A stretch of DNA of 50,390 bases from Desulfuromonadaceae bacterium UBA2294 (GCA_002345625.1 DDWE01000026.1:581-50970); one strand, 5' to 3'. Counted from the first letter of the stretch, positions 11,308-29,600 are shown. The notes: generated from the letters alone by a model not told the origin. Numbers and translations: made by a program.

Positions 11308-11309
11308 AG

Positions 11310-12237: not shown

Positions 12238-12249
12238 GAGGAACAGACA

Positions 12250-12618: not shown

Positions 12619-12629
12619 GTGGAGGAACC

Positions 12630-13022
12630 ATGGCTAAGCCGGGTAAAAGAGTCAGAAAAAAGGTAGAAAAGAAAAACGTTGCCAATGGCATTGTCCACAT
12701 TCAGGCGACGTTCAATAACACGATTGTCACGATTACTGATATCAGTGGCAACGTTATTTCCTGGGCGACTGCCGGTGGCCAGGGCTTTAAGGGGTCACGC
12801 AAGAGTACTCCTTTTGCAGCCTCCATTGCGGCCGAGTCGGCAGCCAAGAAAGCTCAGGAGCATGGCATGCGCAGTATTGAGGTGCGTGTCAATGGTCCCG
12901 GGTCTGGTCGTGAGTCGGCGCTGCGTGCGTTGCAGACCGCTGGCCTGACGGTCACCATGATCAAGGACGTCACCCCGGTTCCGCATAACGGATGCCGTCC
13001 GCCAAAACGCAGAAGAGTTTAA
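12630..13022 (+). CDS. rpsK: 30S ribosomal protein S11 (uS11)
   Basis: 130-aa ORF containing [18 protein letters not shown]. Confidence 0.97.
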
Positions 13023-13042
13023 GCGAATAAAGGAGATCGACG

Positions 13043-13672: not shown

Positions 13673-13723
13673 ACAAGCCGACGGCGGTTTGCTGACGACT
13701 GCAACCTCAAACGGAGGATACGC

Positions 13724-14740
13724 ATGTATAGAAACTGGAGAGAACTCATCAAGCCGAAGCGGCTCCAGGTCGATACCGATTCCCTGAGTGATACTTATGG
13801 GAAGTTTTACGCCGAGCCCTTCGAGCGCGGTTTCGGGACGACGTTGGGTAACGCATTGCGGCGGATTCTGCTCTCCTCCTTACAGGGGGCGGCAATTTCC
13901 TCGGTACGTATTAAGGACGTTCTGCACGAGTTCTCAACTGTGCACGGCGTGACCGAAGACGTCACCGACATCATCCTCAATCTTAAAGGGGTGCTGTTGC
14001 GTGTGCACGGTAATGACAGCCGTAACATCCGCATCGTTAAAAAAGGGGCCGGATTGATCACGGCCGGTGATATCGTCACCGATTCCCACGTTGAAGTTCT
14101 CAATCCCGAGCATCACATTGCCACCTGTGGTAAGGAGTGTGATCTGGAGATGGAGATGGTGGTGTCGACCGGTAAGGGATATGTCCCGGCCGATCGTAAT
14201 CGTGATGAAAATGCGCCGATTGGCTCGATTCCGATTGATGCGATTTACACACCGATCAAGAAGGTCAACTTCATGGTGACGAATGCCCGCGTCGGGCAGA
14301 TCACTGACTATGACAAGTTGACCATTGAGATGACCACTGACGGCAGTGTCCGCCCTGATGATGCTTTGGCCTATGCGGCAAAAATTCTCAAGGAGCAGAT
14401 GCAGATCTTTATCAACTTCGATGAGAATATCGAGCCGCCTGATGCGACTCGTGATGAAGAGTCGAAGCGCATCAACGAGAACCTTTACCGTAGCGTCGAG
14501 GAACTCGAACTGTCGGTGCGTAGCGCCAACTGCTTGAAAAATGCCAACATTCGCCTCATTGGTGATCTGGTGCAAAGAAGCGAAGCGGAGATGCTCAAAA
14601 CCCAGAATTTCGGTCGTAAGTCCCTGAATGAAATCAAGGACATCCTCTCCGACATGGGTTTGACTTTGGGTATGTCCATCGACAACTTTCCCGATCCTGA
14701 ATATTTGAAAATGATCGAAAAGAGCGAAGAGAACATCTGA
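13724..14740 (+). CDS. rpoA: DNA-directed RNA polymerase alpha subunit
   Basis: 338-aa ORF. The N-terminus reads [20 protein letters not shown], and the C-terminal domain reads [16 protein letters not shown]. Confidence 0.98.
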
Positions 14741-14782
14741 TTCTGCTTCGTTCACGATAGAGTGTAGAAAGGAAAGCCTAAA

Positions 14783-15328
14783 ATGCGTCACAATAATACG
14801 GGCAGACGGCTTGGCCGCAATTCCAGCCACCGCAAGGCGATGATGCGCAACATGGTGACCTCGTTGATTGACCACGAGAAAATCACCACGACTGACGCCC
14901 GCGCCAAGGAACTGCGCAAACTTGCCGAAAAGATGGTTACCCTGGGCAAACGCGGTACGCTGCATGCCCGCCGTCAGGCGCTGCAGGTGATTCAGGACAA
15001 GAAAGTTGTCGACAAGCTGTTTGAGCGCTTGGCTCCGCGCTTCAGCAAGCGTGAAGGTGGTTATACTCGCATTGTTAAGCTCGGTTTTCGTACCGGGGAC
15101 AATGCGGCACTGTCGCTGATCGAATTTGTCGAAGAAGAGTTTACGGCAAAAGTTAAAGCGAAGAAGCCGGTGGCGGACAAAGCTGTTAAAGCAGCGCCTG
15201 CTCCAGTTGCAGTTGCTGAAGAGGCCGTTGCCGAAGAGGCCGTTGCCACGGATGAGGTCGCTGAGGTTGAAGAGGCTGCGCCGGCTGAAGAGGCTGCGCC
15301 CACTGAAAAGACCAAAGACGCAGAATAA
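14783..15328 (+). CDS. rplQ: 50S ribosomal protein L17 (bL17) with an Ala/Glu-rich C-terminal extension
   Basis: Begins [20 protein letters not shown]. At 181 aa it is longer than usual, with a low-complexity tail from about aa 117. Confidence 0.96.
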
Positions 15329-15343
15329 GTAATAAACTTAGTT

Positions 15344-15390
15344 ACAACAAAGAGGCGGCTTCCGTAGGGAGACCGCCTCTTTGTCGTTGT
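15344..15390 (+). terminator. Rho-independent terminator of the ribosomal superoperon
   Basis: A 12-bp stem (15347-15358 pairs with 15373-15384, core AAAGAGGCGG/CCGCCTCTTT) is followed by a T-rich run. It lies 16 nt after the rplQ stop. Confidence 0.75.
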
Positions 15391-15431
15391 GCCCATATCC
15401 GAACAAAGCCGGTCATAACCATTGCTGCATA

Positions 15432-15469
15432 ACTAAAAAGAGGTCAGCATTTAACATGCTGGCCTCTTT
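15432..15469 (-). terminator. Hairpin terminator downstream of tRNA-Val
   Basis: On the minus strand the sequence reads AAAGAGGCCAGCAT-GTTAA-ATGCTGACCTCTTTTT, a stem followed by a T-tract. It lies 9 nt after the tRNA 3' end. Confidence 0.7.
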
Positions 15470-15477
15470 GCAGTTTC

Positions 15478-15552
15478 TGGTGGGCGTTCACAGGATCGAA
15501 CTGTGGACCCCTGCCGTGTGAAGGCAGTGCTCTCCCGCTGAGCTAAACGCCC
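15478..15552 (-). tRNA. tRNA-Val (anticodon CAC), CCA encoded
   Basis: The reverse complement is GGGCGTTTAGCTCAGCGGGAGAGCACTGCCTTCACACGGCAGGGGTCCACAGTTCGATCCTGTGAACGCCCACCA. It shows a 7-bp acceptor stem, D-loop AGCTCAGCGGGAGAGC, anticodon stem CTGCC/GGCAG with loop TTCACAC, and a GTTCGATCC T-arm. Confidence 0.93.
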
Positions 15553-15569
15553 GAAAAGTGCGAGTGCGT

Positions 15570-15598
15570 TATATAGCAAGTCGACGTACGTCTGTCAA
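15570..15598 (-). promoter_or_regulatory. Sigma70-type promoter for tRNA-Val
   Basis: On the minus strand the sequence reads TTGACA, a 17-nt spacer, then TATATA. The -10 element ends 17 nt upstream of the mature tRNA 5' end. Confidence 0.6.
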
Positions 15599-15617
15599 GA
15601 GAATCGCGCGCGTTTTC

Positions 15618-16022
15618 TCAGCTGTCGACTAACGCCTTGCGCAAAGAGTCGGGTAATGTTGTCGGACGACGCTCAGGGCCACCAAGAACGACATGCACGG
15701 TGCTCCCCTCAGCGAGCAGAACGGTGTCACGCAGGGCGCGATAGGAGAATTTAAGGGTCTTGCCTTTGGCCTGTTCCAGCGTGGTTTCGATGGTCACCAG
15801 GTCTTCGTAGTAAGCCGGAGCACGATAGCGTACCGATGCATCTGCGACGACGACAAAATAGCCGGATTTCTCAAAACGGGTGTAGTTCAGATCGATCTGC
15901 CGTAGATAGTCTGAGCGTCCTTCCTCAAACCAGACCAGATAGTTGGCATGGTGGACAATTCCCTGTGCATCGGTTTCGGCATAGCGGACGGTCAGTTGCA
16001 ATTGTCTGGTTGTCGCCATCAC
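15618..16022 (-). CDS. Acyl-CoA thioesterase, 4HBT/YbgC (hotdog) family
   Basis: 134-aa ORF. Contains VRYAETDAQGIVHHANYLVWFEEGRSDYL, which is typical of the YbgC/4-hydroxybenzoyl-CoA thioesterase family. Confidence 0.85.
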   Translation of the reverse strand: MMATTRQLQLTVRYAETDAQGIVHHANYLVWFEEGRSDYLRQIDLNYTRFEKSGYFVVVADASVRYRAPAYYEDLVTIETTLEQAKGKTLKFSYRALRDTVLLAEGSTVHVVLGGPERRPTTLPDSLRKALVDS

Positions 16023-16043
16023 GACATCTCCTTGAATGTGGTG

Positions 16044-17435
16044 TTAGTCGGCATCTCTGTTGTCGGATCCATTCTCGCTTGAGCGCATCTGTCGATGCAG
16101 GGAGACTGCGAGCCCACTGATGAGCAGAACACCTCCGCCAAGCAAAACCCAGAGGATGATCTTCTTCCAGGGTAAAGTGGCATTGATCGGCTCCAGTGGC
16201 TGTTCACCGCCGAGTGATAATTCCTGCCGCGACCAGGCCTGGCCCGGTGTTATTTGGTCATGCTTCAGATAATCGACAGGGAATCGGGCCGGACCGACTC
16301 GTTGGCTGCCGGCCGCAAGGAGAAAAGGCGGTTCACCCTGTGCCAGGAACAACACCCGGTCAGGTCGCCAGCCAAAATCGATTGAAGGAGGTGCTTGCAA
16401 CCCGGCTTCACTCGGAGTGCACTCCAGTCGCCAGTTACGGTGGCGATTTCGGCTGACGGCAACGGTTGGAGAAGCAATTTCGCTGGTTCCGCGACCCAAC
16501 CGATAAACCAGTCCACGCCAACGTGACTGCCAGGGTCCGACGGGTAACTCCGCAGACTCAAGCCGACACTCGGCGAGGGTGTTACTGACTGGCAACAGTA
16601 AACGGATCTCTTCTATTGGTAATGGTCCGGGGAGTTGAAATTCATAGGACCGGTTGTTGTCTGCTGTGGTCACTGCCCGAGCTGTGTAGTGTTGCAAGGG
16701 CAGCGAAATTTGCCGGGTGGTTTCGTAACTTAGATCGATAGAGGTCAGTTCAAGGGAGGCCAGAGCAGGCGGCCAGGTAAGGCGCAGGTAGCGCAGTGGT
16801 TGATGCGGTAAAACGACGCGATTTTGCTCCAGACGTTGGCCTTGAAACGAAAGACTGGCGATTGCAGCGGTCGTCAGGGGGGTCCAGTGCGTCAGATCGC
16901 TGCTGTTGTCGATGCGTACTTCACCGATGGCGTCGATATTTGTCGGCGCCCAGGACAAGGTCAAGGCCTTGGTTCGTCCGGTTTTTGCCGGCCCCGTGTC
17001 GACCAGCCAGCCAGAGGGATTGCCGTTTTTAGTAGGTTGATCGTCACGAGAGCGCAGGTCGACGATAGTGCCGCCGGCACCCCGCTCGATATGCAGGCTG
17101 AGGTCGCCGGGGAGTTCTCCGTCACTGGTGGCCGGTAGTGGAAAGAGCGTCAGGGTGCGGTGCTGGGTCGACGTATCGACGGCGACAGCCGGTTGTGGCC
17201 GCAGCTGGTGTGGAACAACAGCTGCCGAGGCGTTAAAGACCCGCAGATCGCCTAAATCGCTCCGAGTAATGACATGATAGGCGGCTGCGGGCAAATCGAG
17301 TTCATAAAAGGTTGCCTCCCGGTCGAGCTCGAGATGAAAACCGGTCGAGAAATCCTGTGGTGAGACAGCACTGGCGGCCGCCGGGAGAAGAAGACTCGCT
17401 ACAAGTAGCCACCAGAAGGGTCGAAGATGATTCAT
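16044..17435 (-). CDS. DUF3999-like exported protein with a C-terminal TM anchor
   Basis: 463 aa. It has a signal peptide (MNHLRPFWWLLVASLLLPAAASA). The N-terminal region (FYELDLPAAAYHVITRSDLGDLRVFNASAAVVPHQL) matches my recollection of the DUF3999 family. A C-terminal hydrophobic helix (ILWVLLGGGVLLISGLAV) is present. Its start overlaps the DUF2339 stop by 4 nt. Confidence 0.7.
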   Translation of the reverse strand: MNHLRPFWWLLVASLLLPAAASAVSPQDFSTGFHLELDREATFYELDLPAAAYHVITRSDLGDLRVFNASAAVVPHQLRPQPAVAVDTSTQHRTLTLFPLPATSDGELPGDLSLHIERGAGGTIVDLRSRDDQPTKNGNPSGWLVDTGPAKTGRTKALTLSWAPTNIDAIGEVRIDNSSDLTHWTPLTTAAIASLSFQGQRLEQNRVVLPHQPLRYLRLTWPPALASLELTSIDLSYETTRQISLPLQHYTARAVTTADNNRSYEFQLPGPLPIEEIRLLLPVSNTLAECRLESAELPVGPWQSRWRGLVYRLGRGTSEIASPTVAVSRNRHRNWRLECTPSEAGLQAPPSIDFGWRPDRVLFLAQGEPPFLLAAGSQRVGPARFPVDYLKHDQITPGQAWSRQELSLGGEQPLEPINATLPWKKIILWVLLGGGVLLISGLAVSLHRQMRSSENGSDNRDAD

Positions 17436-20179
17436 GATGGGTCTCCTTCATCGCTGCGGTGTGGCGGCAATGGGGCCAGATAACCGACCAAAAGACAGAG
17501 CAGACCGACGCCGATAAAGGAGATGATCCGTTCGACGGTACTGGTGTTGGCCAGGTCAAAGGTAAACAGTTTGACAATGACCAGTGCAATCAGCGCGCTA
17601 CCAATGAGCCAGATCGGACGCAACCCGCGCCGGGCGCCGGACCACATCACCAGCAGGGCGGTCACCGTCCAGAAAATAGAGAAGGTGGTCTGGGCCAGGT
17701 CAGAATTCACCATGCTGTGAAGATGAAAAGGGATTTTGCCGAGGTGGTGCAGGGCGCGGACGACAGCGGCGTTCAGCCACCAGAACAGGCTGCCGGCGCT
17801 GATAATGACCAGTGTAAACCGGTTCAGTCCCAGCGGTGACGTTTTCAGATGATTGTAAACCGTAAACAGCCAGATGCCGAGGACCGCAAGAACTCCGGCC
17901 TGAGCCAGATCAAGCGGGTTAAGCAGCGGGAGATACATCAGGGGCCAGGGGTCACCGCGGGATACAAGACTGGTTCCGAGGGCGCCAAGCCAGAGCAGAA
18001 CAGCAATTGGGGCTGCAGCGATTTGCAGATAGGACTGCAGGTGGGAGCGCAGCGGCCAGATCGGAAGGTTTCGCAGCAGGCAGAGCGCGAGGAGAAACAG
18101 GGCCGGTACAATGCCGATCACCACAAATGGCCAGACACCGGCGCCATCAACGAGGTGGTCGGTCCACCAGGCGATCTCCCAGGTGACAAGACTCAGCAGT
18201 AGCCAGAAGGTGAGGATATGCAGCCAGCGGACCACCGTTGGCAATTGCGGTTCGCTCTGCTCATCCTGGTGGAGCAGGGAGAAGAGGATGGCAAAGGCGA
18301 GCGGCCAGGCAATGGCTCCTCCATATAGTGACGGGTGGCGGAAGGTGTGATCGATACAGAAGGCTAAAGCGCCATAGAGCGCTGGTGTCAGCCCGAAGTA
18401 GACCCGACGCAGGTGCGGCCAGTTTGCGCGGGATCCGCACAGGTAGGCGAGCAGGGAAGAGAGTGTGATAAAGGCGATCGCTACGGCAAACCGCTCACGA
18501 CCGAGGACGTGAAGCTCGATTTCGTGCAGACCGTTGCCAAACCACCAGAGCAACCCCCAGGCAAAGGCGCCGAGGCTTTCGGCTGGGGCGCTGGCGAAGC
18601 GGTCGCGATGCCGGTGTAGGTAGTAGCCGCTGAACAGACCGGCAACGGCGATCAGCCCCGCACCGAGGAAGACGCCATTGATCACCGGCGTCAGGCTGGT
18701 CGGTTCGTGCATCGCATCGAGAAACGCGCCACCGGCCAGAATTTGCAACACCAGACCGGAGATCCGGGCCAGCCAACGTTGCTGACGAACGGCGATCCAG
18801 AGCAGGGCCGCCCCCTCCAGAGCCCAGGCCGCTGCTGTCCATCGACCATCAAGGGCCAGTGGGATGGCGACCGTACCAAAGACGACGCCGATGGCTATAT
18901 AGGCGGAAGCCAGGGTGTGCCAGGCTCTGCCGGCGCGACGCACCAAAGCCGCAGCGAGCAGGGAGTAGAGCAGGCCAAGGGCGAGAGCGGACCAGGCCAG
19001 GCCGTACTCGTAGGGTTTGACCAGCCCGGCCTGGAGCGCGAAGCAAATGATGGGTGTGCCAAAGACCATGGACCCGTCAACGTAGCCTTGCCAGGCGGCC
19101 GTCTGGTTGCGGGCGAAGAGCAGGCCGATGACCAGATAGAAAACAAAGAACAGTAGCAGAAAGGCCTCTGTCGACCAGAACAGGTCGGGACGGTAAGAAC
19201 CGAACCCCCAGGCGGTGCCGATCCCAAAGGTAAAGAGGAATCCGACCAGGTTGAGTTCGCGCCAGGAGCGATGCCAGGCGATGAGGACAATGCCGAGGTT
19301 GAGCAGGGCATAGTAAGAGAAGAGCATGATATGGCTGCCGCCACCGGTGGAGGTTAATACCGGGGCGAGGAAGCCGCCGATGATGCCGATCACCGCCAGC
19401 ATCCGTGCATCCTGAAGTATGGCCAATGCGGCCGATGCGATGGACATGACCACCAGCAGGGCGAGGGCGAACCCGACCGGCAACAGCTGGTAAAGGCGCA
19501 GGGCGGCAAAGATGGTCAGGTAAAGGACACCGACCGCTCCGCCCTGGACAATCAGGGCGTACCCGGGGCGCGAAAGACGTAATCGCCAGCCGAATAGCAG
19601 CAGAGCAATGGCACTTGCCGCAACGCCGAGCAGGCGCAGCTCAATCGGGATGATGTTGCGCTCGGCAGAGTATTTCAGCAGAAAAGCGACACCGAAAAAG
19701 AGGACGATAACGCCGGCCCGGACAATCACGTTGCCACCGGTGAAATAACTCACGACAATCTGCCATAGATCGAAGGCCGGCTCCTTGTCACGAGATGCAG
19801 ACGGGGCGGGTGTCGCCGGACGCGGCGGGGTTGTTGGTCGAGGAGCGGTTCCAGGTGAACCGGGCGTTAGCGCCGATGACGGGCGCAGCGGTTCAAAAAT
19901 GAAATCATCTCCGGCTGTCGGCACCGGAGTGGACGCTTGTCGCAGTGTGGTGGTTACTGCTGCGGGTTGCGTCTGTGGTCGGGAGGCTGGCGGGGTGGCC
20001 GCTCGCTTTAATTCTTCCAGCGCCGCTTCGCTGCGCTCAAGCCTCTTCTCCAGCCGCTGGTCGCGCAGCCAGAGGACGGCGAGCAGACCGCCCCAGAGCA
20101 GCCAGGCGCCGAATTCGTGACGGTTAAAATAGAAAAAAGCTCCGGCCGCTGCACCGGCGGCGAGGATCAATACGGGCAT
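17432..20179 (-). CDS. DUF2339-like large polytopic membrane protein
   Basis: Start taken at ATG 20179 (MPVLILAAG), which follows an AAGGAGGG SD; the ORF track opens at 20251. After an N-terminal TM segment come a charged coiled-coil-like stretch (RDQRLEKRLERSEAALEELKR), a Pro-rich linker and more than 20 hydrophobic helices. This is the DUF2339 pattern. Confidence 0.75.
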   Translation of the reverse strand: MPVLILAAGAAAGAFFYFNRHEFGAWLLWGGLLAVLWLRDQRLEKRLERSEAALEELKRAATPPASRPQTQPAAVTTTLRQASTPVPTAGDDFIFEPLRPSSALTPGSPGTAPRPTTPPRPATPAPSASRDKEPAFDLWQIVVSYFTGGNVIVRAGVIVLFFGVAFLLKYSAERNIIPIELRLLGVAASAIALLLFGWRLRLSRPGYALIVQGGAVGVLYLTIFAALRLYQLLPVGFALALLVVMSIASAALAILQDARMLAVIGIIGGFLAPVLTSTGGGSHIMLFSYYALLNLGIVLIAWHRSWRELNLVGFLFTFGIGTAWGFGSYRPDLFWSTEAFLLLFFVFYLVIGLLFARNQTAAWQGYVDGSMVFGTPIICFALQAGLVKPYEYGLAWSALALGLLYSLLAAALVRRAGRAWHTLASAYIAIGVVFGTVAIPLALDGRWTAAAWALEGAALLWIAVRQQRWLARISGLVLQILAGGAFLDAMHEPTSLTPVINGVFLGAGLIAVAGLFSGYYLHRHRDRFASAPAESLGAFAWGLLWWFGNGLHEIELHVLGRERFAVAIAFITLSSLLAYLCGSRANWPHLRRVYFGLTPALYGALAFCIDHTFRHPSLYGGAIAWPLAFAILFSLLHQDEQSEPQLPTVVRWLHILTFWLLLSLVTWEIAWWTDHLVDGAGVWPFVVIGIVPALFLLALCLLRNLPIWPLRSHLQSYLQIAAAPIAVLLWLGALGTSLVSRGDPWPLMYLPLLNPLDLAQAGVLAVLGIWLFTVYNHLKTSPLGLNRFTLVIISAGSLFWWLNAAVVRALHHLGKIPFHLHSMVNSDLAQTTFSIFWTVTALLVMWSGARRGLRPIWLIGSALIALVIVKLFTFDLANTSTVERIISFIGVGLLCLLVGYLAPLPPHRSDEGDPS

Positions 20180-20195
20180 CGTCGCACCCTCCTTG

Positions 20196-21422
20196 TCAAA
20201 AATACCAGCGCAGTAACGCCCCACCGCTGTCACCCATACTCCCGAACTCACTGCGCGGCAGTGAGGAACCGGGATAGGGCGGAGAGCCGTTGGCTACAGC
20301 ATAAAACAGGTCAAGACTCAGGTTGCCGGTCAGCGAGCAGGTGATCTGCGGGCGTAAAAGACTCGAGTCGTCATCCAAATTCCAGATCAGCAGGGTGCTG
20401 AGTGTGACCAGCGGGTGCATCTCCCAACTCGGCGAGATCAGCAGATAATGCCGGCCGAGCAGGGAACTGAGCCCCTCCCTGAGTGGCGCAGACGCCACCA
20501 CTTGCGGGTAACGTTGCGGGTCGCTGCTGCCGACGCCGTTGTAGAGCCCCTCAACCAACAGAACCAGACCGTTGTCGAAACGGTACCAGAATTCGATCCC
20601 TCCCTGCCAGAAATATTCATACAAATCGCCGCCAGGAGTATCGACATCCTGGCCGCGGTAAGCGGTTGCTTCAACCTTGACCCCGAGAGATTTAATATCA
20701 CCGGCAAGCCCGACGCCCAACAAAGGGCGGTGACGCAAACTGCCGGTCAGGGCTAGGAGATCGACGTTGTTGAAGGTGTCGGCATAGGTAAGCAGATAGC
20801 TGTTTTCACGGGCGGTTTCGCCAAAGACGATGATGCCGTTGGTTTGACTGCCGCGATTTGTTGAAAAGATCGCACGCACAGCATCGACACCGGGGCGGAC
20901 ATCGGTGTCGAGAGCTTCGGGCGAGAAGGGGTTGATGACGTCGAGGGGCGACGCGATAACGATACGGCCGAAGCCGATCGCCTGACGCCCCATACTCCAG
21001 TCGAACGCACCGTGGCGGCCGCGGAGCAGCAGACGGTCGATCTGCAGGGTGTCGGCAAGATGTTCTGTCCCGCCCCAACTGCCTTCAAGATCGAAGTAAC
21101 GACCGGATGATGTGGAGGGTAGTGGCGTTTGGAGTGGAGAACTTCGGTACAGGATCAGGTTGTCGAGGGCCAGCTCGAAGCGAAGACCCGGTTGCAGCTC
21201 GTGCTGCAGGTCGAGACGTTGCCCCGAGGCGGTGAAAGTGCTGTGTTCCCCTCCAGGTCCTGGTGGCGCGGCAGAGACGACCGAGAGGCTTTTCAGGTGC
21301 CCACTGACTTCAAAAGCCAGCACTGGACCGGCGCATGACAGACTGAACAACAGGACGCAAAGTCCGAATCGCCATCGCGGTCGCCGGTGACCCGGACGGT
21401 TACAGTGGTTGGCGCACATCAT
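20196..21422 (-). CDS. Putative outer-membrane beta-barrel protein (porin-like, family not assigned)
   Basis: Has a signal peptide (RRPRWRFGLCVLLFSLSCAGPVLA). The sequence is Gly/Tyr/Asp-rich with an alternating pattern, and it ends in LLRWYF with a terminal Phe, typical of outer-membrane barrels. Start ATG 21422 is chosen provisionally; the ORF track opens at 21470. Confidence 0.6.
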   Translation of the reverse strand: MMCANHCNRPGHRRPRWRFGLCVLLFSLSCAGPVLAFEVSGHLKSLSVVSAAPPGPGGEHSTFTASGQRLDLQHELQPGLRFELALDNLILYRSSPLQTPLPSTSSGRYFDLEGSWGGTEHLADTLQIDRLLLRGRHGAFDWSMGRQAIGFGRIVIASPLDVINPFSPEALDTDVRPGVDAVRAIFSTNRGSQTNGIIVFGETARENSYLLTYADTFNNVDLLALTGSLRHRPLLGVGLAGDIKSLGVKVEATAYRGQDVDTPGGDLYEYFWQGGIEFWYRFDNGLVLLVEGLYNGVGSSDPQRYPQVVASAPLREGLSSLLGRHYLLISPSWEMHPLVTLSTLLIWNLDDDSSLLRPQITCSLTGNLSLDLFYAVANGSPPYPGSSLPRSEFGSMGDSGGALLRWYF

Positions 21423-22089
21423 TTTCAAGTTGCCCGTCACGCAGACGGACAACACGTTTGGCGTGGGCAATCACTTGCGGATCGTGGGAACTGAACAGAA
21501 AGGTGACGCCCTCTTTTTCATTCAGTTCGCGCATCAGGTTCAGCAGCTCTGCTGCCGTATGGGAATCGAGGTTGGCCGTCGGCTCGTCGGCCAGGATCAC
21601 GGCCGGTTTCGGGGCGATGGCGCGGGCAATGGCAACGCGCTGTTGCTGACCGCCGGAGAGCTCCCCCGGGCGCCGATTCTTGAGCTCGGCAATATCGAGA
21701 CGCTCAAACAGCTCGTCGATGCGGGCCCGTCGCTCGGCCGGCGCGATCCCCTGCAACAGGAGGGTAAATTCGGCATTCTCCGCCGCCGTCAGAACCGGGA
21801 TCAGGTTGTAGGACTGGAAGATGAAGCCGATACGATGCAGCCGGAAATCGGCCAACTGGCGCGAGGAGAGATCGTCGTAGTTGACGCCATCGACGGCAAT
21901 AGCGCCTTCCGTTGGACGATCGAGGGCTCCGACCATATTGAGAATAGTGGTTTTGCCGCTGCCGGACGGACCGGCGAGAACGGCGAAATCCCCCGCCTTG
22001 ATAAACAGGCTGAGTTCAGAGAGGGCGGCGATGTGCTGGCTGCCGCTGGTATAAATTTTGGTCACATTGCGCAGTGCGATAAGGGACAT
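21400..22089 (-). CDS. ABC transporter ATP-binding protein (LolD/MacB type)
   Basis: Walker A GPSGSGKTT, signature LSGGQQQRVAIARA and Walker B ILADEPT are all present. Confidence 0.93.
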   Translation of the reverse strand: MSLIALRNVTKIYTSGSQHIAALSELSLFIKAGDFAVLAGPSGSGKTTILNMVGALDRPTEGAIAVDGVNYDDLSSRQLADFRLHRIGFIFQSYNLIPVLTAAENAEFTLLLQGIAPAERRARIDELFERLDIAELKNRRPGELSGGQQQRVAIARAIAPKPAVILADEPTANLDSHTAAELLNLMRELNEKEGVTFLFSSHDPQVIAHAKRVVRLRDGQLENDVRQPL

Positions 22090-22196
22090 GCCGGTGTTTC
22101 TCCGTTAGCGGCGAGGTGTGAGCCGCGATTTTATGATGTCACTACAGCGGTATAAAACAAAAGCGTTCAAAACATAATTAAAAGTCAAACCCGATC

Positions 22197-22273
22197 ATCA
22201 CGAAGGAGACGAAGCACACGAAGAGAGGCAGACACCCTTGTTTTAACTTCGTGCTCTTCGTGCCCTTCGTGGT
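22197..22273. repeat. Imperfect inverted repeat built from 9-nt CACGAAG-containing units, lying inside an operon gap
   Basis: The left arm (22197-22223) is ATCACGAAGGAGACGAAGCACACGAAG. The right arm (22247-22273) is CTTCGTGCTCTTCGTGCCCTTCGTGGT. The reverse complement of the right arm matches the left at 22 of 27 positions. The loop is 23 nt. Confidence 0.7.
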
Positions 22274-22300
22274 GAACAGCTCTTGCAGATTTTTTTGTCT

Positions 22301-23533
22301 TCAGCTATTGCGCATCGCCACCGCTGGCGCAGTGCGGGCCGCGCGGTTGGCCGGGTAGAAAGCGGCCAGCGCAGCGAGCAGCGGCATCAGAATCGCCATG
22401 CGTAGCATGTACTCGAAATCCCAGGTGGCGCGCAGGACCGGGTCGAAAATGACGCCACCGAACTCCATCGACTCGGGCAGAAAGCGGCGCAGGTCGATGC
22501 CGACATCGGTCAGGTACCAGGTCAGCAGGCTGCCGAGTGCGCTCCCGAGAAGCATGGCGATCAGGCCGAGCAGGAGCGCTTCGCACAACACCATGGCACG
22601 CAGACGCCAGGGGCTGGCTCCGAGGGCTAACAACAGGCCGAACTCCGGCAATCGTTCCATCACCGCCATCAGCAGGGTATTGACGACACCGATGCTGACA
22701 ATGGCGACAATGACCAGAAAAATGAATTTTTGACTGGCATAGTCGAGCTTGATTGCATTGGCGAGGTTCGGCATCGCCGCATCCCAGGGGATCGCCTGAA
22801 GGTCACCCGGCGGCAACAGGGCGCGCACCCGTTGCAAGACGGCACCGCTCTCATCCGGACGATTGAGCATGATGGCGATTTCGTGCACGGCATCCGGACG
22901 CCCGGCGAGGAGGGCGGCACGTTGCCGTCCGACCATAACCAGTGATCTGTCGATATTGCGGATCCCCGATTCGACGGTGCCGCGGACAAACAGCAGTTCG
23001 CTGGCCAGTTCCCCGTCGGCGCCCTGGGCGGTGACGACAAACTTCTGACCGATTTCAAGGCGCAGTTCCTGCAACAGTCGACTGCCGATCAGCGCGTCGC
23101 GGCCATCGGCACTCGGCAGCAGGGCCGGCAGGTCGAGTCGACGCAATAGCGGGTTGACCAGCCCTTCGGCGGTCGGATCGATGCCGGTGAGCAGAATCCC
23201 CCGACTCTCCCGGCTCGATTGTGCCAGCGCCGGCAGGTAGAGTCGCTCGACCACCCCGTCGACGCCGGGAAGTGCCGCAATCTTTTGCGGCAGGTCTGCC
23301 GGCACAAAGGTGAGGCGGTCGTCGCGGCTGACGGCATAGTCGCCGCGGTAGATGGAGATATGGCCGGAACCGGCGCGAACGCCGTTGTCGATCATCTGCG
23401 CATAAACGCCAAAGGAGAGGTTGTGAAAGCCCTGCACCAGCATGAGGCTGAAACTCATGGCGATCAGGGTGATCAGGGTTCGACGGCGATTCCGCCAGAG
23501 ATTGCGCCAGGCTAAAGTGAGCGTCATCATCAA
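22301..23533 (-). CDS. ABC transporter permease, FtsX/LolC-LolE/MacB family
   Basis: 410 aa. Begins LAWRNLWRNRRRTLITLIAMSFS (TM1), followed by a large periplasmic loop and then three C-terminal TM segments. Confidence 0.88.
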   Translation of the reverse strand: MMMTLTLAWRNLWRNRRRTLITLIAMSFSLMLVQGFHNLSFGVYAQMIDNGVRAGSGHISIYRGDYAVSRDDRLTFVPADLPQKIAALPGVDGVVERLYLPALAQSSRESRGILLTGIDPTAEGLVNPLLRRLDLPALLPSADGRDALIGSRLLQELRLEIGQKFVVTAQGADGELASELLFVRGTVESGIRNIDRSLVMVGRQRAALLAGRPDAVHEIAIMLNRPDESGAVLQRVRALLPPGDLQAIPWDAAMPNLANAIKLDYASQKFIFLVIVAIVSIGVVNTLLMAVMERLPEFGLLLALGASPWRLRAMVLCEALLLGLIAMLLGSALGSLLTWYLTDVGIDLRRFLPESMEFGGVIFDPVLRATWDFEYMLRMAILMPLLAALAAFYPANRAARTAPAVAMRNS

Positions 23534-23535
23534 GG

Positions 23536-24762
23536 TCAGTCCATCCTGATCGCGGCGACCGGTTGCAGCCGGGCGGCCCGTCGGGCCGGGAACACCCCGG
23601 CGATCAACGTGGTGAGCAGCAGCATCAATGTCGGGTCGAGCAGGTTGCGCAGCTCAAGGACGGTGTGCAGGCGTGGCGGCAGGGTGCCGCCGGCGTAGCT
23701 GATCGGTGTAATCCAGGCCGAGAGATCGAGTCCGTTATCGCGCATGAGCGCACACAGCACCAACCCACCGGCAACGCCGAGGCTGGCTCCGAGCAGCCCG
23801 AGCAGGATCGATTCAAGCAGCACCAACAGGCGAATGCGTCCCGGTCGCAGACCGATGGCCATCAGGATGCCGAATTCGCGGGTGCGCTCCATCACCGACA
23901 TGAACAGGGTATTGAGGACGCCAAGGCCGGTGGCGAAATAGAGGATGACGCTGAAGATCATCCGACTGACATCAAAGGAGGCGATCGCTTCGCGCATCTG
24001 GGGCAGCAGGGTCCCCCAATCGACGATGCTCACCCCTTCGGGCAGCAGTGGGCGCAGGCGCGCGGCAGTTTCTGGTGCCGACATCGGATCGGCGATCGCC
24101 AGCGCCACCTCATGAACCTGCCCCGGCAGGGCCAGGGTGCGTTGCAGCCAGCCAAGCGGAACCAGCAGCAGGCCGTTATCATGCGCACTGTCACCGGTCT
24201 TGAAGATGCCGCGGACAATCAGCAGGTCGTTGCCGATGGAACCGTCGGCGGCCTGGGTGACAAAAACCAGCTCGGCGCCGGGTTTGACCCCGAGGCGTCG
24301 GGCCAGGGTTTCACCGATGATGGCGCCGCGGTCATCTCCATCGTTTAACGCTGAGCCGGCAACCAGCTGCCGTTGCAAACTGGTGACGCCGGCCTCCTGG
24401 CTCGGGTGGACGCCGAGCAGTTCCGCCGGGTAGCTGTTGTCGGTGTGGGAGATCAGGCCGTAGCCGCGCAGGCGGGGCGATAGTCCGGTCACCTGGTCGC
24501 TGTCTGCGAGCCTCTCAATAAGGGGGAGATCGGTTTCAGCCAGCGTGGTGTAGAGATCATGGTTCTCCTGATAATCGCCTTCGCTGATCACCAGGTGACC
24601 GTGATACTGCTCGGTCGCCGAAGCGAGGATATCGCGCAGCATACCGGAGAAGATACTCAGGGCGAGGATCAGCAGGGCGAGGGAGACGATCATGGCTGAC
24701 AAGGTCAACAGCGAACGACGACCGTTGCGCCACAGATTTCGATATGCAAGAGAGAACAGCAT
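23536..24762 (-). CDS. ABC transporter permease, FtsX/LolC-LolE/MacB family
   Basis: 408 aa. Begins LAYRNLWRNGRRSLLTLSAMIVS and has the same topology as its neighbour. The gap to the next gene is 2 nt. Confidence 0.88.
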   Translation of the reverse strand: MLFSLAYRNLWRNGRRSLLTLSAMIVSLALLILALSIFSGMLRDILASATEQYHGHLVISEGDYQENHDLYTTLAETDLPLIERLADSDQVTGLSPRLRGYGLISHTDNSYPAELLGVHPSQEAGVTSLQRQLVAGSALNDGDDRGAIIGETLARRLGVKPGAELVFVTQAADGSIGNDLLIVRGIFKTGDSAHDNGLLLVPLGWLQRTLALPGQVHEVALAIADPMSAPETAARLRPLLPEGVSIVDWGTLLPQMREAIASFDVSRMIFSVILYFATGLGVLNTLFMSVMERTREFGILMAIGLRPGRIRLLVLLESILLGLLGASLGVAGGLVLCALMRDNGLDLSAWITPISYAGGTLPPRLHTVLELRNLLDPTLMLLLTTLIAGVFPARRAARLQPVAAIRMD

Positions 24763-24769
24763 GTAAGGG

Positions 24770-25504
24770 TCAGTTTTTCAGGTTGCGCAGGGAGAAGAAA
24801 GCAGCTTTGATCGAGATATCGAAGTCGATGGCATCGTAATGGATCACGGTCTGTTCATTTGGCTTGTCCAGCGGTTGCACTGTCATCCGCAACGGAATGA
24901 CGCGTCCAGCGACGCGGGTGACCTCGTCAAAGACGATCTCCCGCACCGGGACCATTTTTTCGTCAAAATAGGTGACCCGACCCGGAACCTCTTGCGGCCG
25001 GATGATTTCATAGACCACCTTGCCCCAGATCACCGCTGCATCCGGTTTCGGCAGACAGGCAATGCGATACTGCTCCGGAGTCTCCTCGAGCAGCTCAAAG
25101 GTGTAGTCTTCATCGATGTGGTTGGCCTTGACCAGATCGTCGTTGGTGATGTGACTCCCCATCCAGGCCCCACCCATCATCGAGGGGGGGACCTTGATCA
25201 CCCGATCGACCTTCGGCAGATAGTTCCAGACATTGCGCTCGACCTTGAGGGTTGCGACGCCCGCCTCTTTGGCCGGCGCCAGAATCCGTACCAGAAAATG
25301 CTCCCGCCCCAGCGACCACGACTCCATGGTCAGGGAGCGCTCCCAGTGCTCGGCGCGTACCTGCATGGTCATGACGGTCTTGGACGACAGGCCCATGTAC
25401 TGTTGCTCAATTTTACGGATCAGTCCGCGCAGACCGGCGGCCGCTGCCAAGCTCGGCAGCAACAGAAAAATGATTAGAAAGGCGAACCGGGATGGACGAC
25501 GCAT
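24770..25504 (-). CDS. LolA-like outer-membrane lipoprotein-sorting (carrier) protein
   Basis: 244 aa with a signal peptide. The motif VWNYLPKVDRVIKVPPSMMGGAWMGSHITNDDLVK is typical of the LolA_like family. Confidence 0.8.
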   Translation of the reverse strand: MRRPSRFAFLIIFLLLPSLAAAAGLRGLIRKIEQQYMGLSSKTVMTMQVRAEHWERSLTMESWSLGREHFLVRILAPAKEAGVATLKVERNVWNYLPKVDRVIKVPPSMMGGAWMGSHITNDDLVKANHIDEDYTFELLEETPEQYRIACLPKPDAAVIWGKVVYEIIRPQEVPGRVTYFDEKMVPVREIVFDEVTRVAGRVIPLRMTVQPLDKPNEQTVIHYDAIDFDISIKAAFFSLRNLKN

Positions 25505-25580
25505 GGGTCAAAAACCTCAAGGTATGAATGCCTGGGCATTATAGCCGGATGCGGTGGGTAATACTACAGCGAAGAGGGTT

Positions 25581-26186
25581 TTAGCCCTGCCGTTTTTCGG
25601 CGACGAAAAGGCGCGGCGCCGTCGGGCAGTTGCCGACCTCGATCCGTAACACATCCCACTCGTCACGCTTAAGGGATCCAAACCAGGCCTCAACCGCCGC
25701 TGATTCCTGCTCTCCACCGACGTGTCCCGGATAGGCGACGACCGCCAGGCGTCCGCCGCTGGCAAGTCGTGCGGCGACCTGGTCGAGGGCGCGCAGGGTG
25801 GTCGATTCTTGAGTCAGGGTCCGATGGTCGCTCCCCGGCAGGTAGCCGAGGTTGGCGATCACCGCCTTGGGTGCCCCGGGCAGAAAGAAGGCGCAGTCTT
25901 CGTGCCCGGCGGCGATGAGGTAGACGCCGGGTGCCGGTTGCCCTCGAGCCGGTTCCATCCCGTGATAGACCTCTATCCCGGCCTGTTGCAGGCGGGTGGC
26001 CGTGCTGTCCAGCGCAACGGTGTCGATATCGAAGGCCAACACGCAGCCGTGCGGGGCGACGGAGCGGTACAGAAACAGGGTGTCGTGGCCGTTGCCGGCG
26101 GTGAGGTCTACGGCCAGGTCGCCGGCCTGCAGCACGTCAGCGAGCAGGTTCTGGGCCAGGGGGACGATGCGGGTCAGACGGGTCAT
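25581..26186 (-). CDS. Class I SAM-dependent methyltransferase (putative rRNA/tRNA methylase, YtqB-like)
   Basis: 201 aa. Contains DLTAGNGHDTLFL (a motif I-like glycine loop) and FDIDTVALDST. Confidence 0.7.
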   Translation of the reverse strand: MTRLTRIVPLAQNLLADVLQAGDLAVDLTAGNGHDTLFLYRSVAPHGCVLAFDIDTVALDSTATRLQQAGIEVYHGMEPARGQPAPGVYLIAAGHEDCAFFLPGAPKAVIANLGYLPGSDHRTLTQESTTLRALDQVAARLASGGRLAVVAYPGHVGGEQESAAVEAWFGSLKRDEWDVLRIEVGNCPTAPRLFVAEKRQG

Positions 26187-26195
26187 GATGTGAGG

Positions 26196-26525
26196 TCAGC
26201 GGTAGCGGATGATGCGGGCTTTTTCGAGGGTGACCAGACCGCTGCCGATGAGCCCGTCAAGCTTGGGGAGCACGGCGTCGATGTTTTCTGCGGTGTCGAC
26301 CACTTCGATCACCACCGGCAGGTCGGCAGCCAGGCGCAGGTAGCGATCGGAGTGCAGGGCGCTGCCGACACCAAACCCGGCGGCCCCTTTAAGCACAGTC
26401 GCTCCGGCCAGGCCTTCAGCGAGAAACAGTTCCAGCAGCACCTCCATTAAAGGGCGGCGACCAGACCGGTCGTTCTCACCGATAAAGATGCGCATCAGGG
26501 TCTGCTCTTCCACGTTGTAGGTCAT
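26196..26525 (-). CDS. DUF190 (UPF0166, PII-like) protein
   Basis: Start taken at ATG 26525 (MTYNVEEQTLMRIFIGENDR), which follows an AAGGGAGAG SD. Contains GATVLKGAAGFG, typical of DUF190. Confidence 0.75.
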   Translation of the reverse strand: MTYNVEEQTLMRIFIGENDRSGRRPLMEVLLELFLAEGLAGATVLKGAAGFGVGSALHSDRYLRLAADLPVVIEVVDTAENIDAVLPKLDGLIGSGLVTLEKARIIRYR

Positions 26526-26661
26526 AAGCTCTCCCTTTGCCAAGTGATGCAATACCGTTTCCGCTCAATTCTAGCAGATAAAAGATGTTTGGGATTCTGC
26601 GGTATTTACGTCGATTGGTACAGGCTTTTTTCAAAGCCCGCCTACAAGTAGAGTTTGAAGA

Positions 26662-29600
26662 TTACAGCCGGTCGATCCAGGACAGGGCGTCCTTAACCGA
26701 GGTCTGGTCGAATTTGAAGCGGAAGTTCAGGTAGGGGCCCTGGGCCGTGTAGTTGCCCTGGGCGAAATCGTCGTCACGATAACCGGTGACGTTGTAGCCG
26801 AGGCTGACCCAGAGATTTTCCGCCGGATTGTAGCCGACCGAGCCCCCACTGCGCCAGTCGATTTGGCCGATCTCCCAGGTGTGCAGGGCTCCACCGTGCA
26901 CGCCGACATCCCATTTCTGACCAAGGTCGCGCCGGTATTCGGCCGAGAGCAGATCGGTGTAGCCGCTCCAGGTCTGATCAAGCAGGTCCTCGCTGACAAA
27001 TTTGCAACCATACTGGAACGATAACTGATTGATCCGGTCCGGCTTGTAGTTGGCGTGTAGGTTGTTGATCACGCGCCAGCTGCGCGAGCCGCCGCTGCCA
27101 CCGGTCTGTTCACTATGGGTATCGAGCCGATCAAGGAGAATCCAGCGGCTGCGGTCGGGACGCCAGACTCCGCTGAGGCTGATCTCGACATTGTTTGAAT
27201 TGCCGCCGGCACGCTCCGAACGGTACAGGGTGGTGCGAGCGCCGAGACCGACTCCGGGCTGGATCCGGCCGGTGATGCCACTGGCGAGCCCGTAGCGGTC
27301 TTCGCTGTCAGAGGTACGGAATTCTGCGCGATTCCACCATTTCCAGTTTTCGCCTTCGGTCGCGCCACCGAGGGCCAGGGCGGTAAAGTCATCGTCCGCG
27401 GCGGCTCCCGGAACGGCCGGATTGTAGCGGTCGGTGCTGTTGCTCAAGGCCTGGGCCCGATCGAAGGAGAAATCGAGGGTCCAGCGTTTGACCTGCCATG
27501 ATTGCTGCAGACCAAACAGGGCAAGGAGACGGCTGCTGTTGTCGTCATTGACGGTACGTTGTACCGAGCTGTCGATGCGTCCGCCCTGCCAGGGGGTGGA
27601 ACGCAGACCGAGACGACTGCTGTTGCCGCCGCCGGAATCGCTGTGGATAAACTCCTGCTCACCGTAGATCGACAGCGGCTGCATCACTTTGAATTCAGCG
27701 CCGAGCAGGGTGCGCGTCGGGTAATCGACGTTTTCGTTGTTGCCGATCGCCTGCTCGTGGCGTGCCTGGAGGTTCAGGCGGCGCAGCGGCTGCCATTCGC
27801 TGCCAGCAAAGACCTGGTTGGAAGGGAGGTGACTGCCATCGGCCAGTCGGTCTTCGGCGCGGCGCGCACCAACGCGCAGGTTGGATTTGGCCTGTTGCAG
27901 GGTGACGGCCCCCTCAATGACATTGCGCCAGGCGTTGGTGTCAATGCGCTCTTCGCGGCTGATCAGACCCTCAACCCCGAGCTGTTTGTTCAATTGATAA
28001 TCGGCCTGGGCGCCGATTTTGCGCGTCGAATCTTCACCGGCGCTGGTTTGGCCGAGCCCGAAACCGCTCTCTTGTTCGCGCCACCAGACCTGACTGTTGA
28101 ACCGGTTGGAAGAGTGCTTGAGTTCGGTCAGCCAGGCGGTGGCGTTGTTGTCAACACCGAGATTGCGATTTTCTGTTCTGGCCAGTTCGGCCCGCAGGAC
28201 AGTGGCGTCAGTCAGGTTCAGCGTGACGTCGCTGCCGTAGAGACTCCCTTTCTTGCTGCCGAGCTCTTCACGCACGTAGGTGGCACCGATTTCGGCACGA
28301 TTGCCCAGTCGGGTGGCGGCGCGGCCACCATAGGTCATGGCACTTTCACTGCCACTGGGGACTTCGTAATCGACGACAATAAAGATCGGGTTGAAGTCGG
28401 CATCGCGGCTTGGGACCGGAGCCTTGAAAAACAGGGTGCCGCTGTAGGGGTCGAGGTCGTAGTCGACGTATCGGGTCAACGGGCGCTGCAGCAGGACAAC
28501 GTCGCTGCGGAAGCGATCACGGGTCTCCAACATCAGCTTGTCGGAGTTTTCAACGATCAATGTATGGCTCAGGCGGTAAAGGCCGGAGGTGCCATCCCCC
28601 TGAATTTCATCGCGGACGAAGGCCTGGCCGGTGTCGCTGGCAAAGGCAACAGCGTCGCCTTGCTTGCCGTGCCACTCGGTCTTCACCCCGGTTAAACTGC
28701 GGCTGTAGCGCGAGAGCTCGGTGACGGTCAGGCCGGTGTCGAAGTCGCCGAACAGCGCATAGAACTGATCGCGTTCGATCTTTAAAAACAGGTTGCGGCT
28801 GGTGCTGGCGTCGTTGTGTTGAACACTGGCGTCACCGTAGAGCAGGTAGTAGCGGTTCGGGTCGATATCGTCGTGCAGGCTGCGCCCCTCGCGGTTTGGC
28901 CGGGCGCTGTCGTAAGCGGCGGTGACCAGCCATTTCCCCTGTACTTTCCCCTTGGCGTAGAAGGCGACGCGACCATCGTTGTAGAGATCCTCCTCCACAT
29001 CGGCGGCCGATTCCATGTTGCCGCTGATGGTGTTGTAGCCGACCGTCCCTTCTGCCAGGCCGACCAGGATCCAGTCCTTACGCTGCTCGCCGCCGACATC
29101 AACCGTCAAGTCGATGGTCTGGTCGACATAGACCAGTTGACTCTGATAACGCCCGCTGGCCATCACCGGCGCGAAGCGGACAATCCCATCCTCGCCGACA
29201 TCGATGGTCGAGGCCGATTCTGGTTGGTCAAAAGCACCGACCTGGTTACGCCAGGGACGCAGATCACCGCCATGGATTTCAACCGTGAACGGGGTGGCCA
29301 GAACCGATCCCTGTTCGTCCAGTGCCTGCAAACGGATCTGCAGCGGTGTGCGCCCGTCGGCGACATTCCCGGCGACATCAGCAACGACCAGACTGGCGAT
29401 GCCGCCGGTGCGCAGCAGTTTAATCGTCTGCTCGAAACGGGGATTGCCAAACGGATCGATCCCCTGCAGCACCAGATTGTGTGCTCCCGGGGCGCCGAGA
29501 TCGACGCCGATGTAGGTGTAGGTTGTCTGGCCGCTCTCGCTATCGGCGAGGGTCGCACCGATTTTTCCGGGCGCAATCTCTACCGTATCGAGCAGCAGGC

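Follow-up and report, generated by a model that had tools for sequence, protein, structure and literature searches.

How far does tight packing of genes on one strand speak for a common function of their products? The question is raised by a string of eight genes in Desulfuromonadaceae bacterium UBA2294 (GCA_002345625.1 DDWE01000026.1:581-50970). In the stretch of DNA that was analysed, which is 50,390 nucleotides (nt) long and is referred to below as the window, the minus strand carries all eight open reading frames (ORFs) of the string between positions 15618 and 25504. In order of transcription, they code for a LolA-like carrier, two permeases, an ATP-binding cassette (ABC) ATPase and a predicted outer-membrane barrel (together unit A), followed by a DUF2339 and a DUF3999 protein (unit B) and a thioesterase (unit C). 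The ORF list of the window and our family assignments, made with Pfam and NCBIfam models, agree with the eight genes and the Pfam families named in a first-pass annotation of this DNA. That annotation went on to read the linkage as a sign of one dedicated module for lipid or lipoprotein trafficking or envelope remodelling. We consider it likely that the string is instead a composite of three independently distributed units, namely an exporter, an Arc3 pair and a thioesterase.

Distribution of the exporter genes

On the exporter side, a scan of one genome per species with the barrel alignment as query returned 80 loci, and tblastn with nine window proteins was run on 81 related loci. The synteny scans cover at most 80 loci each, and Arc3 and thioesterase genes are detectable in them within 10 kb only. 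The barrel loci come mostly from Desulfuromonadales, with one from Desulfatiglandales and one from Halodesulfovibrio. In 57 of the 81 loci, unit A is present with all its five genes full-length, colinear and on the same strand, most of the other loci being cut by contig ends, and the barrel gene always lies directly after the ATPase gene in the relatives. The median junctions of these 57 loci (5 nt, -1 nt, 80 nt and overlapping) follow the pattern of the window, down to its loose permease 2/ATPase junction. Because this pattern is the family norm, the five-gene arrangement is not due to chance. The set recurs well outside this group. The second chromosome of Vibrio campbellii and Persicobacter (Bacteroidota) carry genes for the LolA-like protein, two permeases, the ATPase and the barrel in the same order as the window, and megaplasmids of Ralstonia pickettii and Burkholderia thailandensis carry genes for a LolA-like protein, an ABC ATPase, a fused double-FtsX permease and a barrel. 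These four cross-phylum loci came from tblastn of plasmid records.

The genes on either side of unit A change from locus to locus. Directly after the barrel gene, 19 of 66 loci have an OmpA/OprF-like gene, seven have an opposite-strand gene for an MnmM-like methylase, and seven to nine have an HDOD or response-regulator gene; the upstream slot varies too, with DUF6178 and UbiE-like methyltransferase genes among the neighbours. Given this recurrence across phyla with variable flanks, unit A appears to be an ancient, autonomous and accessory envelope export module, of which the OmpA/OprF-like protein is a possible facultative sixth partner. A search of the accessible literature on modules combining PF17131, a type VII ABC transporter and a barrel found no functional study, and a search on TP0789, PF17131 and “outer membrane lipoprotein-sorting protein” found proteome, annotation or expression mentions only and likewise no functional study. 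We regard unit A as an apparently uncharacterised variant of the Lol/type VII ABC kind.

Individual loci add further detail. The post-barrel OmpA/OprF-like gene is seen, for example, in L027, L029 and L034 at about 11200-12500, and eight downstream-neighbour ORFs in the same scan have thrombospondin type 3 repeats. In L043 (9206-11122), a LolA-like gene is followed directly by the barrel gene with no ABC genes; L031 (9285-11161) has the ATPase and barrel genes, with no carrier or permease gene within 10 kb upstream. On the Ralstonia and Burkholderia megaplasmids, a gene for a UbiB/AarF/ABC1 kinase follows the module (L172 9261-10958; L173 9096-10796), and the region has many genes for stress and lipid functions, among them VTT, isoprenylcysteine carboxylmethyltransferase, LemA/TPM and ppk2. 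In three Desulfuromusa loci (L008 1091-1618; L010 4932-5423; L033 5361-5882), a divergent gene for a 4HBT thioesterase of another subfamily lies just upstream of the LolA-like gene, and in two other loci a patatin-like phospholipase gene occupies that place. These 4HBT and patatin neighbours give a weak hint of a lipid theme around unit A.

The Arc3 pair and the thioesterase

The first-pass annotation treated DUF2339 and DUF3999 as two families of unknown function, a label that can now be corrected. Judged by their family matches, the two window proteins are homologues of the published pair Arc3A and Arc3B, which are PA5114 and PA5113 of Pseudomonas aeruginosa (Ting et al., eLife 2022, PMC8926400). 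The Arc3A homologue (17432-20179, minus strand; longest ORF 17432-20251) matches DUF2339 (PF10101) at 3e-176 with 588.5 bits, and the Arc3B homologue (16044-17435, minus strand) matches DUF3999 (PF13163) at 5e-106 with 355.9 bits. In the published work, transposon sequencing (Tn-seq) showed the pair, chiefly Arc3A, to be protective against the type VI phospholipase toxin Tle3 and to keep lysophospholipids from accumulating (PMC8926400). The pair is widespread and often adjoined by aas/lplT, its protection phenotype is known from P. aeruginosa and P. protegens only, and its mechanism is an open question (PMC8926400). Hydropathy shows at least 20 hydrophobic segments in the window Arc3A, making it a polytopic inner-membrane protein. 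The window Arc3B is predicted to be periplasmic; it begins with a signal peptide and carries a transmembrane helix near its C-terminus (residues 421-439). Its lipidation is unlikely because the signal peptide has no Cys.

Arc3B is sparsely distributed: a word search with the window protein found only 27 homologues, four of them at 48-54% identity and the next, the nearest outside the lineage, at 38%. On this side, 80 metagenomic Arc3B loci and six that were fetched individually make 86. Arc3A lies just upstream of Arc3B in 80 of these 86 other loci, and the contigs of the remaining six end near Arc3B. MFS_1/MFS_3 and Acyltransferase are the sole families that recur in the flanks, in agreement with the published aas/lplT neighbourhood (PMC8926400).

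The last gene of the string (15618-16022, minus strand) codes for a protein with 4HBT_2/4HBT matches that scores 94.1 bits with the YbgC/FadM model TIGR00051, above the cut-off of 68.7, and has hotdog-fold relatives among solved structures (PDB 1z54 at 1.9e-23; YbgC, 5kl9, at 6e-14). With TIGR02799, the equivalog model for the YbgC of the tol-pal system, it reaches only 89.6 bits against a cut-off of 141.35, and no tol-pal genes are adjacent. Neither a signal peptide nor a transmembrane segment was found in it, which places it in the cytoplasm. A search finds 5148 homologues at E ≤ 1e-10. Identity is 61-78% for the best-scoring of them, and those with a source name are from Desulfuromonadales or Deltaproteobacteria. 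The orthologue of Desulfuromonas carbonis (68% identical) sits between ferredoxin-like and GAF/HD genes, with no Arc3 or ABC genes nearby. We accordingly predict a cytoplasmic acyl-CoA thioesterase of the YbgC/FadM family that is common in Desulfuromonadales. The idea that it arrived as part of an acquired Arc3 block was rejected, since it is found in no other Arc3 locus and is common and standalone in other Desulfuromonadales. The Arc3 pair and the thioesterase are ordinary members of known families.

Linkage between the three units

The two sides can be compared for co-occurrence. Among the genome loci, 56 have 3 kb or more of sequence downstream of the barrel, and none of these shows Arc3A, Arc3B or the thioesterase by tblastn, even at E ≤ 10; no Arc3 or thioesterase gene lies within 8 kb at the four cross-phylum unit A loci. 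From the other side, a LolA-like gene, an FtsX permease gene, this barrel and this thioesterase are all lacking at the 86 other Arc3B loci. As there is no co-occurrence from either side and the thioesterase stands alone elsewhere, we recognise three units rather than one. The first-pass annotation had itself named synteny in relatives as the comparison that could overturn its reading, and here it does so: with the combination at 0/56, 0/4 and 0/86 loci, the DUF2339, DUF3999 and thioesterase genes are neighbours of the exporter in one narrow lineage only, and their place in the same dedicated machine is not upheld.

That lineage comprises, as far as contigs reach, the window and four metagenomic relatives (L002, L086, L087 and L088), whose barrels are 58-72% identical to that of the window. 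In L002, L086 and L087, the genes for the ATPase, barrel, Arc3A, Arc3B and thioesterase follow in order; the contig of L088 stops inside Arc3B, so its thioesterase slot is unseen. The barrel/Arc3A gap is 11-17 nt in the four relatives. Further downstream, L086 continues to a tRNA-Val gene (7211-7285) and rplQ, as does the window; L002 and L087 continue to an epimerase gene instead. The gene for the MnmM-like methylase lies upstream and co-oriented in the window and L002, lies downstream of the barrel on the opposite strand in many relatives, and has also been placed at 12266-12874 of L001. The gene order around the methylase, CrcB and DUF190 differs between D. soudanensis and L002, and the five-gene block was therefore probably inverted in the lineage of the window. 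In phylogenetic terms, the association of the three units is one event. The string was kept through some divergence and one downstream change, which speaks mildly in favour of the arrangement being tolerated or useful and agrees with read-through transcription. As a side observation, L002, L086 and L087 all come from one metagenome (JGI sample 3300027985), which thus holds three variants of the string, their barrels being 71-87% identical to one another.

Tight junctions conserved in four diverged relatives and two flanking contexts would also be expected if all eight genes specified one dedicated machine for lipid or lipoprotein trafficking and remodelling, for instance for the disposal of lysophospholipids or free fatty acids. 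Such a machine could draw on several further observations. Arc3 prevents lysophospholipid accumulation by an unexplained mechanism (PMC8926400), YbbAP-TesA sets a precedent for cooperation between a type VII ABC transporter and a lipid hydrolase (PMC12646458), and unit A has a different 4HBT gene beside it in the three Desulfuromusa loci and a patatin gene in two others. The absence of the combination from every one of the loci counted above speaks against it, as do the cytoplasmic location of the thioesterase, its standalone occurrence elsewhere, and the tracing of the whole association to a single evolutionary event. Moreover, a P. aeruginosa arc3A mutant regains its defence when given heterologous Arc3A homologues, which the authors of that work take to show that Arc3A can act alone (PMC8926400). 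We regard a single eight-gene machine as unlikely, and the locus teaches that one machine is not demonstrated by tight junctions alone.

The carrier, permeases and ATPase

The carrier gene (24770-25504, minus strand) specifies a protein whose N-terminus, MRRPSRFAFLIIFLLLPSLAAAAG, is a signal peptide apparently cleavable by signal peptidase I, with no Cys lipobox. On account of this cleavable-looking signal and the missing Cys, we predict a soluble periplasmic protein rather than a LolB-like lipoprotein. As to whether it is a canonical LolA, its sole Pfam match is LolA_like (PF17131, 1e-40), and it has no NCBIfam match. It is of the PF17131, TP_0789-like type and matches PDB 3buu (NE2245, a member of the LolA superfamily) at 1.5e-08.

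Permease 1 (23536-24762, minus strand; Pfam MacB_PCD and FtsX) has four transmembrane helices and a MacB-type periplasmic core. Its hydropathy, with segments at about 19-37, 265-283, 319-337 and 374-392, is that of the type VII topology, in which helix 1 is followed by a large periplasmic domain and helices 2-4. In permease 2 (22301-23533, minus strand; Pfam FtsX), the C-terminal helices are seen and helix 1 is below the threshold used. FtsX in both permeases, MacB_PCD in permease 1 and the adjacent ATPase gene are the features of a type VII (MacB/FtsX) ABC system. The closest solved structures are LolF, LolE and LolC for permease 1 and LolF and LolC for permease 2, in both cases ahead of MacB. 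The permeases are separate proteins of about 410 amino acids (aa) each and paralogues of one another, with 33-34% identity; they therefore probably form a heterodimer in the fashion of LolC/LolE.

The ATPase (21400-22089, minus strand; ABC_tran at 9e-33) is of the LolD/MacB/FtsE type. It scores 209.2 bits with the LolD equivalog model TIGR02211, below the cut-off of 307.75, and the MacB, DarD, FtsE and DevA models score it almost as high as LolD does. With the lolCE equivalog model TIGR02212, permease 1 reaches 128.7 bits and permease 2 reaches 111.6 bits, below the cut-off of 362.45. As these scores are far under the cut-offs, the set is best called Lol-like and is not the housekeeping Lol system; the first-pass annotation had been right on this point, to which the non-canonical carrier also speaks. 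No paralogues of the module genes occur within the 50-kb window. Vibrio, Ralstonia and Burkholderia, three of the genera in which unit A is found, carry canonical lol genes.

The predicted outer-membrane barrel

The fifth gene of unit A (20196-21422, minus strand; longest ORF 20196-21470) codes for a protein with a signal peptide and the C-terminus ...RWYF, for which a Pfam search finds no family even at E ≤ 10. An AlphaFold2 model built with 36 homologues has 18-19 strands (pLDDT 80.7, pTM 0.77). In a Foldseek comparison with the PDB, this model gives 330 matches at E ≤ 0.001, and the top 50 are all porin- or channel-class barrels, one of them an engineered porin-scaffold metalloprotein; the TM-scores are 0.62-0.65 for chitoporin and about 0.55 for AlgE and OccK8 (0.56 for AlgE). 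The protein thus combines a signal peptide, a C-terminal aromatic residue and, in the model, a closed antiparallel barrel. What had been offered as a barrel candidate is confirmed at the level of the predicted fold as a barrel of about 18 strands, with a predicted location in the outer membrane.

The most conserved motif of the protein, GRQAIGFGRI...SPLDVI.PF.P...D..RPGVDA, spans residues 145-181, and within it residues 151-173 form one internal stretch of low model confidence; the motif may be a loop or plug inside the lumen of the barrel. With a profile of the family, 3198 clusters (at 50% identity) are recovered at E ≤ 0.001, and 465 at the stricter threshold of E ≤ 1e-30; Pfam searches of ten distant members found nothing above the cut-off except a SPOR domain in P0220. 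The barrel hence belongs to a large family that has no Pfam model. Some distant members have an N-terminal extension resembling the peptidoglycan-binding SPOR domain. Only in P0220 does the match pass the Pfam cut-off; P0196, with a weaker SPOR match at its N-terminus, and another distant member, with a weak OMP_b-brl match, both stay below it.

Junctions and the spacer before the ATPase gene

We re-derived the seven junctions from the coordinates and the sequence, and all equal the lengths given in the first-pass annotation. The carrier and permease 1 genes are separated by 7 nt and the two permease genes by 2 nt; the gap of 211 nt between permease 2 and the ATPase is the only loose junction of the string. 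With an ATG start at 21422, the barrel gene overlaps the ATPase gene, whose stop is at 21400, by 23 nt; this ATG is the most likely start, the longest ORF beginning with a TTG at 21470. Arc3A follows after a gap of 16 nt if it starts, as it probably does, at the ATG at 20179, which has AAGGAG ahead of it; its longest ORF runs from a GTG at 20251. Arc3A and Arc3B overlap by 4 nt, and a gap of 21 nt leads to the thioesterase gene.

The loose junction (22090-22300, minus strand) contains an inverted repeat, as had been reported, and a promoter-like site. The arms of the repeat (22195-22223 and 22247-22275) are 29 nt each and 83% complementary; each consists of three 9-mer units of CACGAAGNG, a motif found nowhere else in the window. 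The AT-rich promoter-like site at 22156-22128 comes from a consensus scan, which is by itself no evidence of function. The RNA of the spacer folds with -67 kcal/mol (z -2.9 against shuffled controls). About 145 nt of the spacer (22128-22275), comprising the hairpin and the promoter-like site, are an insertion that is missing in L002, L086 and L087, where the spacer is 62-76 nt long; the median of the unit A family is 80 nt. We rejected the inverted repeat as a conserved regulator, since the closest relatives do not have the insertion in which it lies, and its motif has no second occurrence elsewhere in the window. The insertion may be a small mobile or REP-like element, and it may attenuate or restart transcription ahead of the ATPase gene in this organism only. 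An Rfam scan of 15300-26700 found a tRNA alone above the threshold; sub-threshold matches to P10 sRNA and a Thr leader were taken as chance.

A spacer of 211 nt with a strong hairpin and an AT-rich promoter-like site is what might be seen if the genes were mere neighbours, divided into several transcription units that start, for example, at this site or inside the barrel gene and share neither regulation nor function. It accords with this that the permease 2/ATPase junction is loose family-wide (median 80 nt) and that G+C at third codon positions (GC3) is 0.59 in Arc3B and the thioesterase and 0.665-0.775 in the five unit A genes. However, with a 16-nt gap, a 4-nt overlap and a 21-nt gap, promoters or terminators would hardly fit between the barrel, Arc3A, Arc3B and thioesterase genes; these gaps are short in the relatives too, and the spacer insertion is specific to the window, its promoter-like site being of the kind for which consensus scans give no evidence of function. 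Mere adjacency is in our view improbable. We also set aside composition as proof of transfer, as the GC3 difference is mild and is suggestive rather than decisive.

Surroundings of the string

Directly 3' of the thioesterase gene lies a gene for tRNA-Val(CAC) on the same strand (15478-15552; found with ARAGORN, and with 63.5 bits for the Rfam tRNA model), followed by a terminator-like hairpin at 15461-15445 from a terminator scan; together they mark the probable 3' end of the string. The rpsD-rpoA-rplQ block is convergent with the string and ends at 15328. Upstream of the carrier gene and on the same strand, NCBIfam identifies a gene for an MnmM-like tRNA methyltransferase (25581-26186). Public sequencing runs that contain the sequence of the window are DNA runs of a hydrocarbon metagenome only, and homologues of the barrel assign the source to the Desulfuromonadales.

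Just upstream of the string are three very large minus-strand genes (26662-37610), whose products of 1943, 431 and 1058 aa bear DUF11, OmpA, CarboxypepD_reg, SdrD_B and GEVED domains. The group resembles a gene cluster for giant proteins of the surface or cell envelope, and beyond it lie a glycosyltransferase gene and a YdjC gene. G+C content is about 0.57-0.62 between roughly 16 and 40 kb, compared with about 0.52-0.55 before, and drops again after (intervals 1-16000, 16000-40000 and 42000-50390 of the window). This compositional shift extends beyond the string alone and covers the whole region of envelope genes relative to the ribosomal-protein flank.

A model for a probably composite string

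For unit A, homology to LolCDE-LolA and MacB and the type VII mechanotransmission model point to a possible course of events. ATP hydrolysis by the dimer of the LolD-like ATPase would drive the periplasmic domains of the permease heterodimer, which would pull a cargo, either hydrophobic or lipid-anchored, out of the inner membrane at its outer leaflet. The soluble carrier with its LolA fold would take this cargo and shield it across the periplasm, and the barrel of about 18 strands would receive it at the outer membrane and either insert or export it. The parts of unit A, their predicted compartments and their conserved linkage agree with the first-pass reading of the first five products as an inner-to-outer-membrane set, to the extent that a Lol-like export set, a carrier and a barrel travel together across phyla; the direction of transport, the class of cargo and the contacts between the proteins would follow by analogy. 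From family membership, Arc3AB would limit the build-up of lysophospholipids as in Pseudomonas, and the thioesterase would hydrolyse acyl-CoA in the cytoplasm.

Units B and C would have become placed directly 3' of unit A in the ancestor of the small lineage, along with an inversion that turned unit A around with respect to the mnmM-like gene; transcription now probably runs through the three units and yields one or two transcripts. The result would be co-expression of three envelope-lipid functions and not one obligate machine. Such co-expression within the lineage is plausible, and co-transcription and a functional coupling are possible there; an obligate coupling of the three units is not supported.

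Several points weigh against so loose a composite. The gaps of 11-17 nt between barrel and Arc3A persist with barrels that are only 58-72% identical and in two downstream contexts, which suggests some selection keeping the units together. Each of the three units has to do with membrane lipids or hydrophobic cargo, so that a real functional link in this lineage is possible. The scans that separate the units have the bounds given above, of at most 80 loci each and Arc3 and thioesterase genes seen within 10 kb only, and the suggested cargo and direction of unit A are drawn from Lol/MacB homology only. One might suppose that Arc3AB was recruited in this Desulfuromonadales lineage to the carrier/ABC/barrel route, with Arc3A collecting lysophospholipids or other damaged lipids in the inner membrane, the ABC transporter extracting them, the carrier and barrel expelling them or moving them to the outer membrane, and the thioesterase balancing the acyl-CoA pool; we think this very unlikely, although, if true, it would turn the locus into a natural experiment pointing to the mechanism of Arc3. 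As a point apart from this, unit A itself would be a new, widespread envelope pathway with an 18-strand barrel in place of LolB.

We keep to the composite of three units. Under it, the operon-like fusion of exporter and Arc3 genes is a single, lineage-restricted event that offers at most a weak hint at how Arc3 works. The interest of the locus lies mainly in the widespread and unstudied five-gene module and its barrel family rather than in the link to Arc3, and naming the cargo of unit A would add a new route by which hydrophobic molecules reach the outer membrane.

Comparison with known systems

The question of what unit A carries is a topical one, as the 2025 paper on YbbAP-TesA (PMC12646458) and the 2026 paper on BBJ23-29 of Borrelia (PMC13078400) attest. 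YbbAP-TesA of Escherichia coli resembles the string in that a type VII ABC transporter is genetically linked to a thioesterase or lipid hydrolase (PMC12646458). However, TesA, an SGNH hydrolase, acts in the periplasm docked on YbbP, and the window thioesterase is a predicted cytoplasmic hotdog protein; YbbP is a fused permease, whereas the window has two separate permeases of about 410 aa. Moreover, the window thioesterase gene is three genes away from the ABC genes and is unlinked to them outside the lineage. The Legionella LitOPAI cluster was considered as a relative and rejected, as it is a MacAB-TolC-type pump of unrelated architecture.

Like Arc3 of P. aeruginosa, the window pair has DUF2339 directly followed by DUF3999, an Arc3A with many helices and an Arc3B with a C-terminal transmembrane anchor. 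Unlike PA5113, for which lipidation is predicted, the window Arc3B is without a lipobox Cys. The neighbourhoods also differ, with estA next to the pair in P. aeruginosa and aas/lplT in many bacteria, and with ABC, carrier and barrel genes and a hotdog thioesterase gene in the window. Control by Gac/Rsm, as described for P. aeruginosa, does not extend beyond the Gammaproteobacteria.

The barrel shares with AlgE, the OprD/Occ channels and chitoporin a predicted count of about 18 strands, a signal peptide and a C-terminal aromatic residue. It is only 10-12% identical to those structures, and it is tied genetically to a LolA-like carrier and an ABC transporter and not to polysaccharide export or nutrient uptake. 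In the BBJ23-BBJ29 system of Borrelia, which has been described by bioinformatics only (PMC13078400), the barrel is Omp85/BamA-like, the permease is a homodimer and there are two TPR proteins; the unit A barrel is of the AlgE/OprD size class, and unit A has no TPR genes.

Unit A is also close to LolCDE-LolA of E. coli, including the homodimeric LolF variants, with which it shares a soluble LolA-fold carrier and permeases that match LolF, LolE and LolC best. It differs from that system in scores far under the LolCE and LolD cut-offs, in a carrier of PF17131 that is not canonical LolA, and in a barrel of about 18 strands instead of the LolB lipoprotein. It also appears to be accessory, lying on megaplasmids or the second chromosome in Ralstonia, Burkholderia and Vibrio. 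The five-gene module is a cross-phylum relative of Lol in which the carrier is paired with a barrel from a large family that Pfam does not cover.

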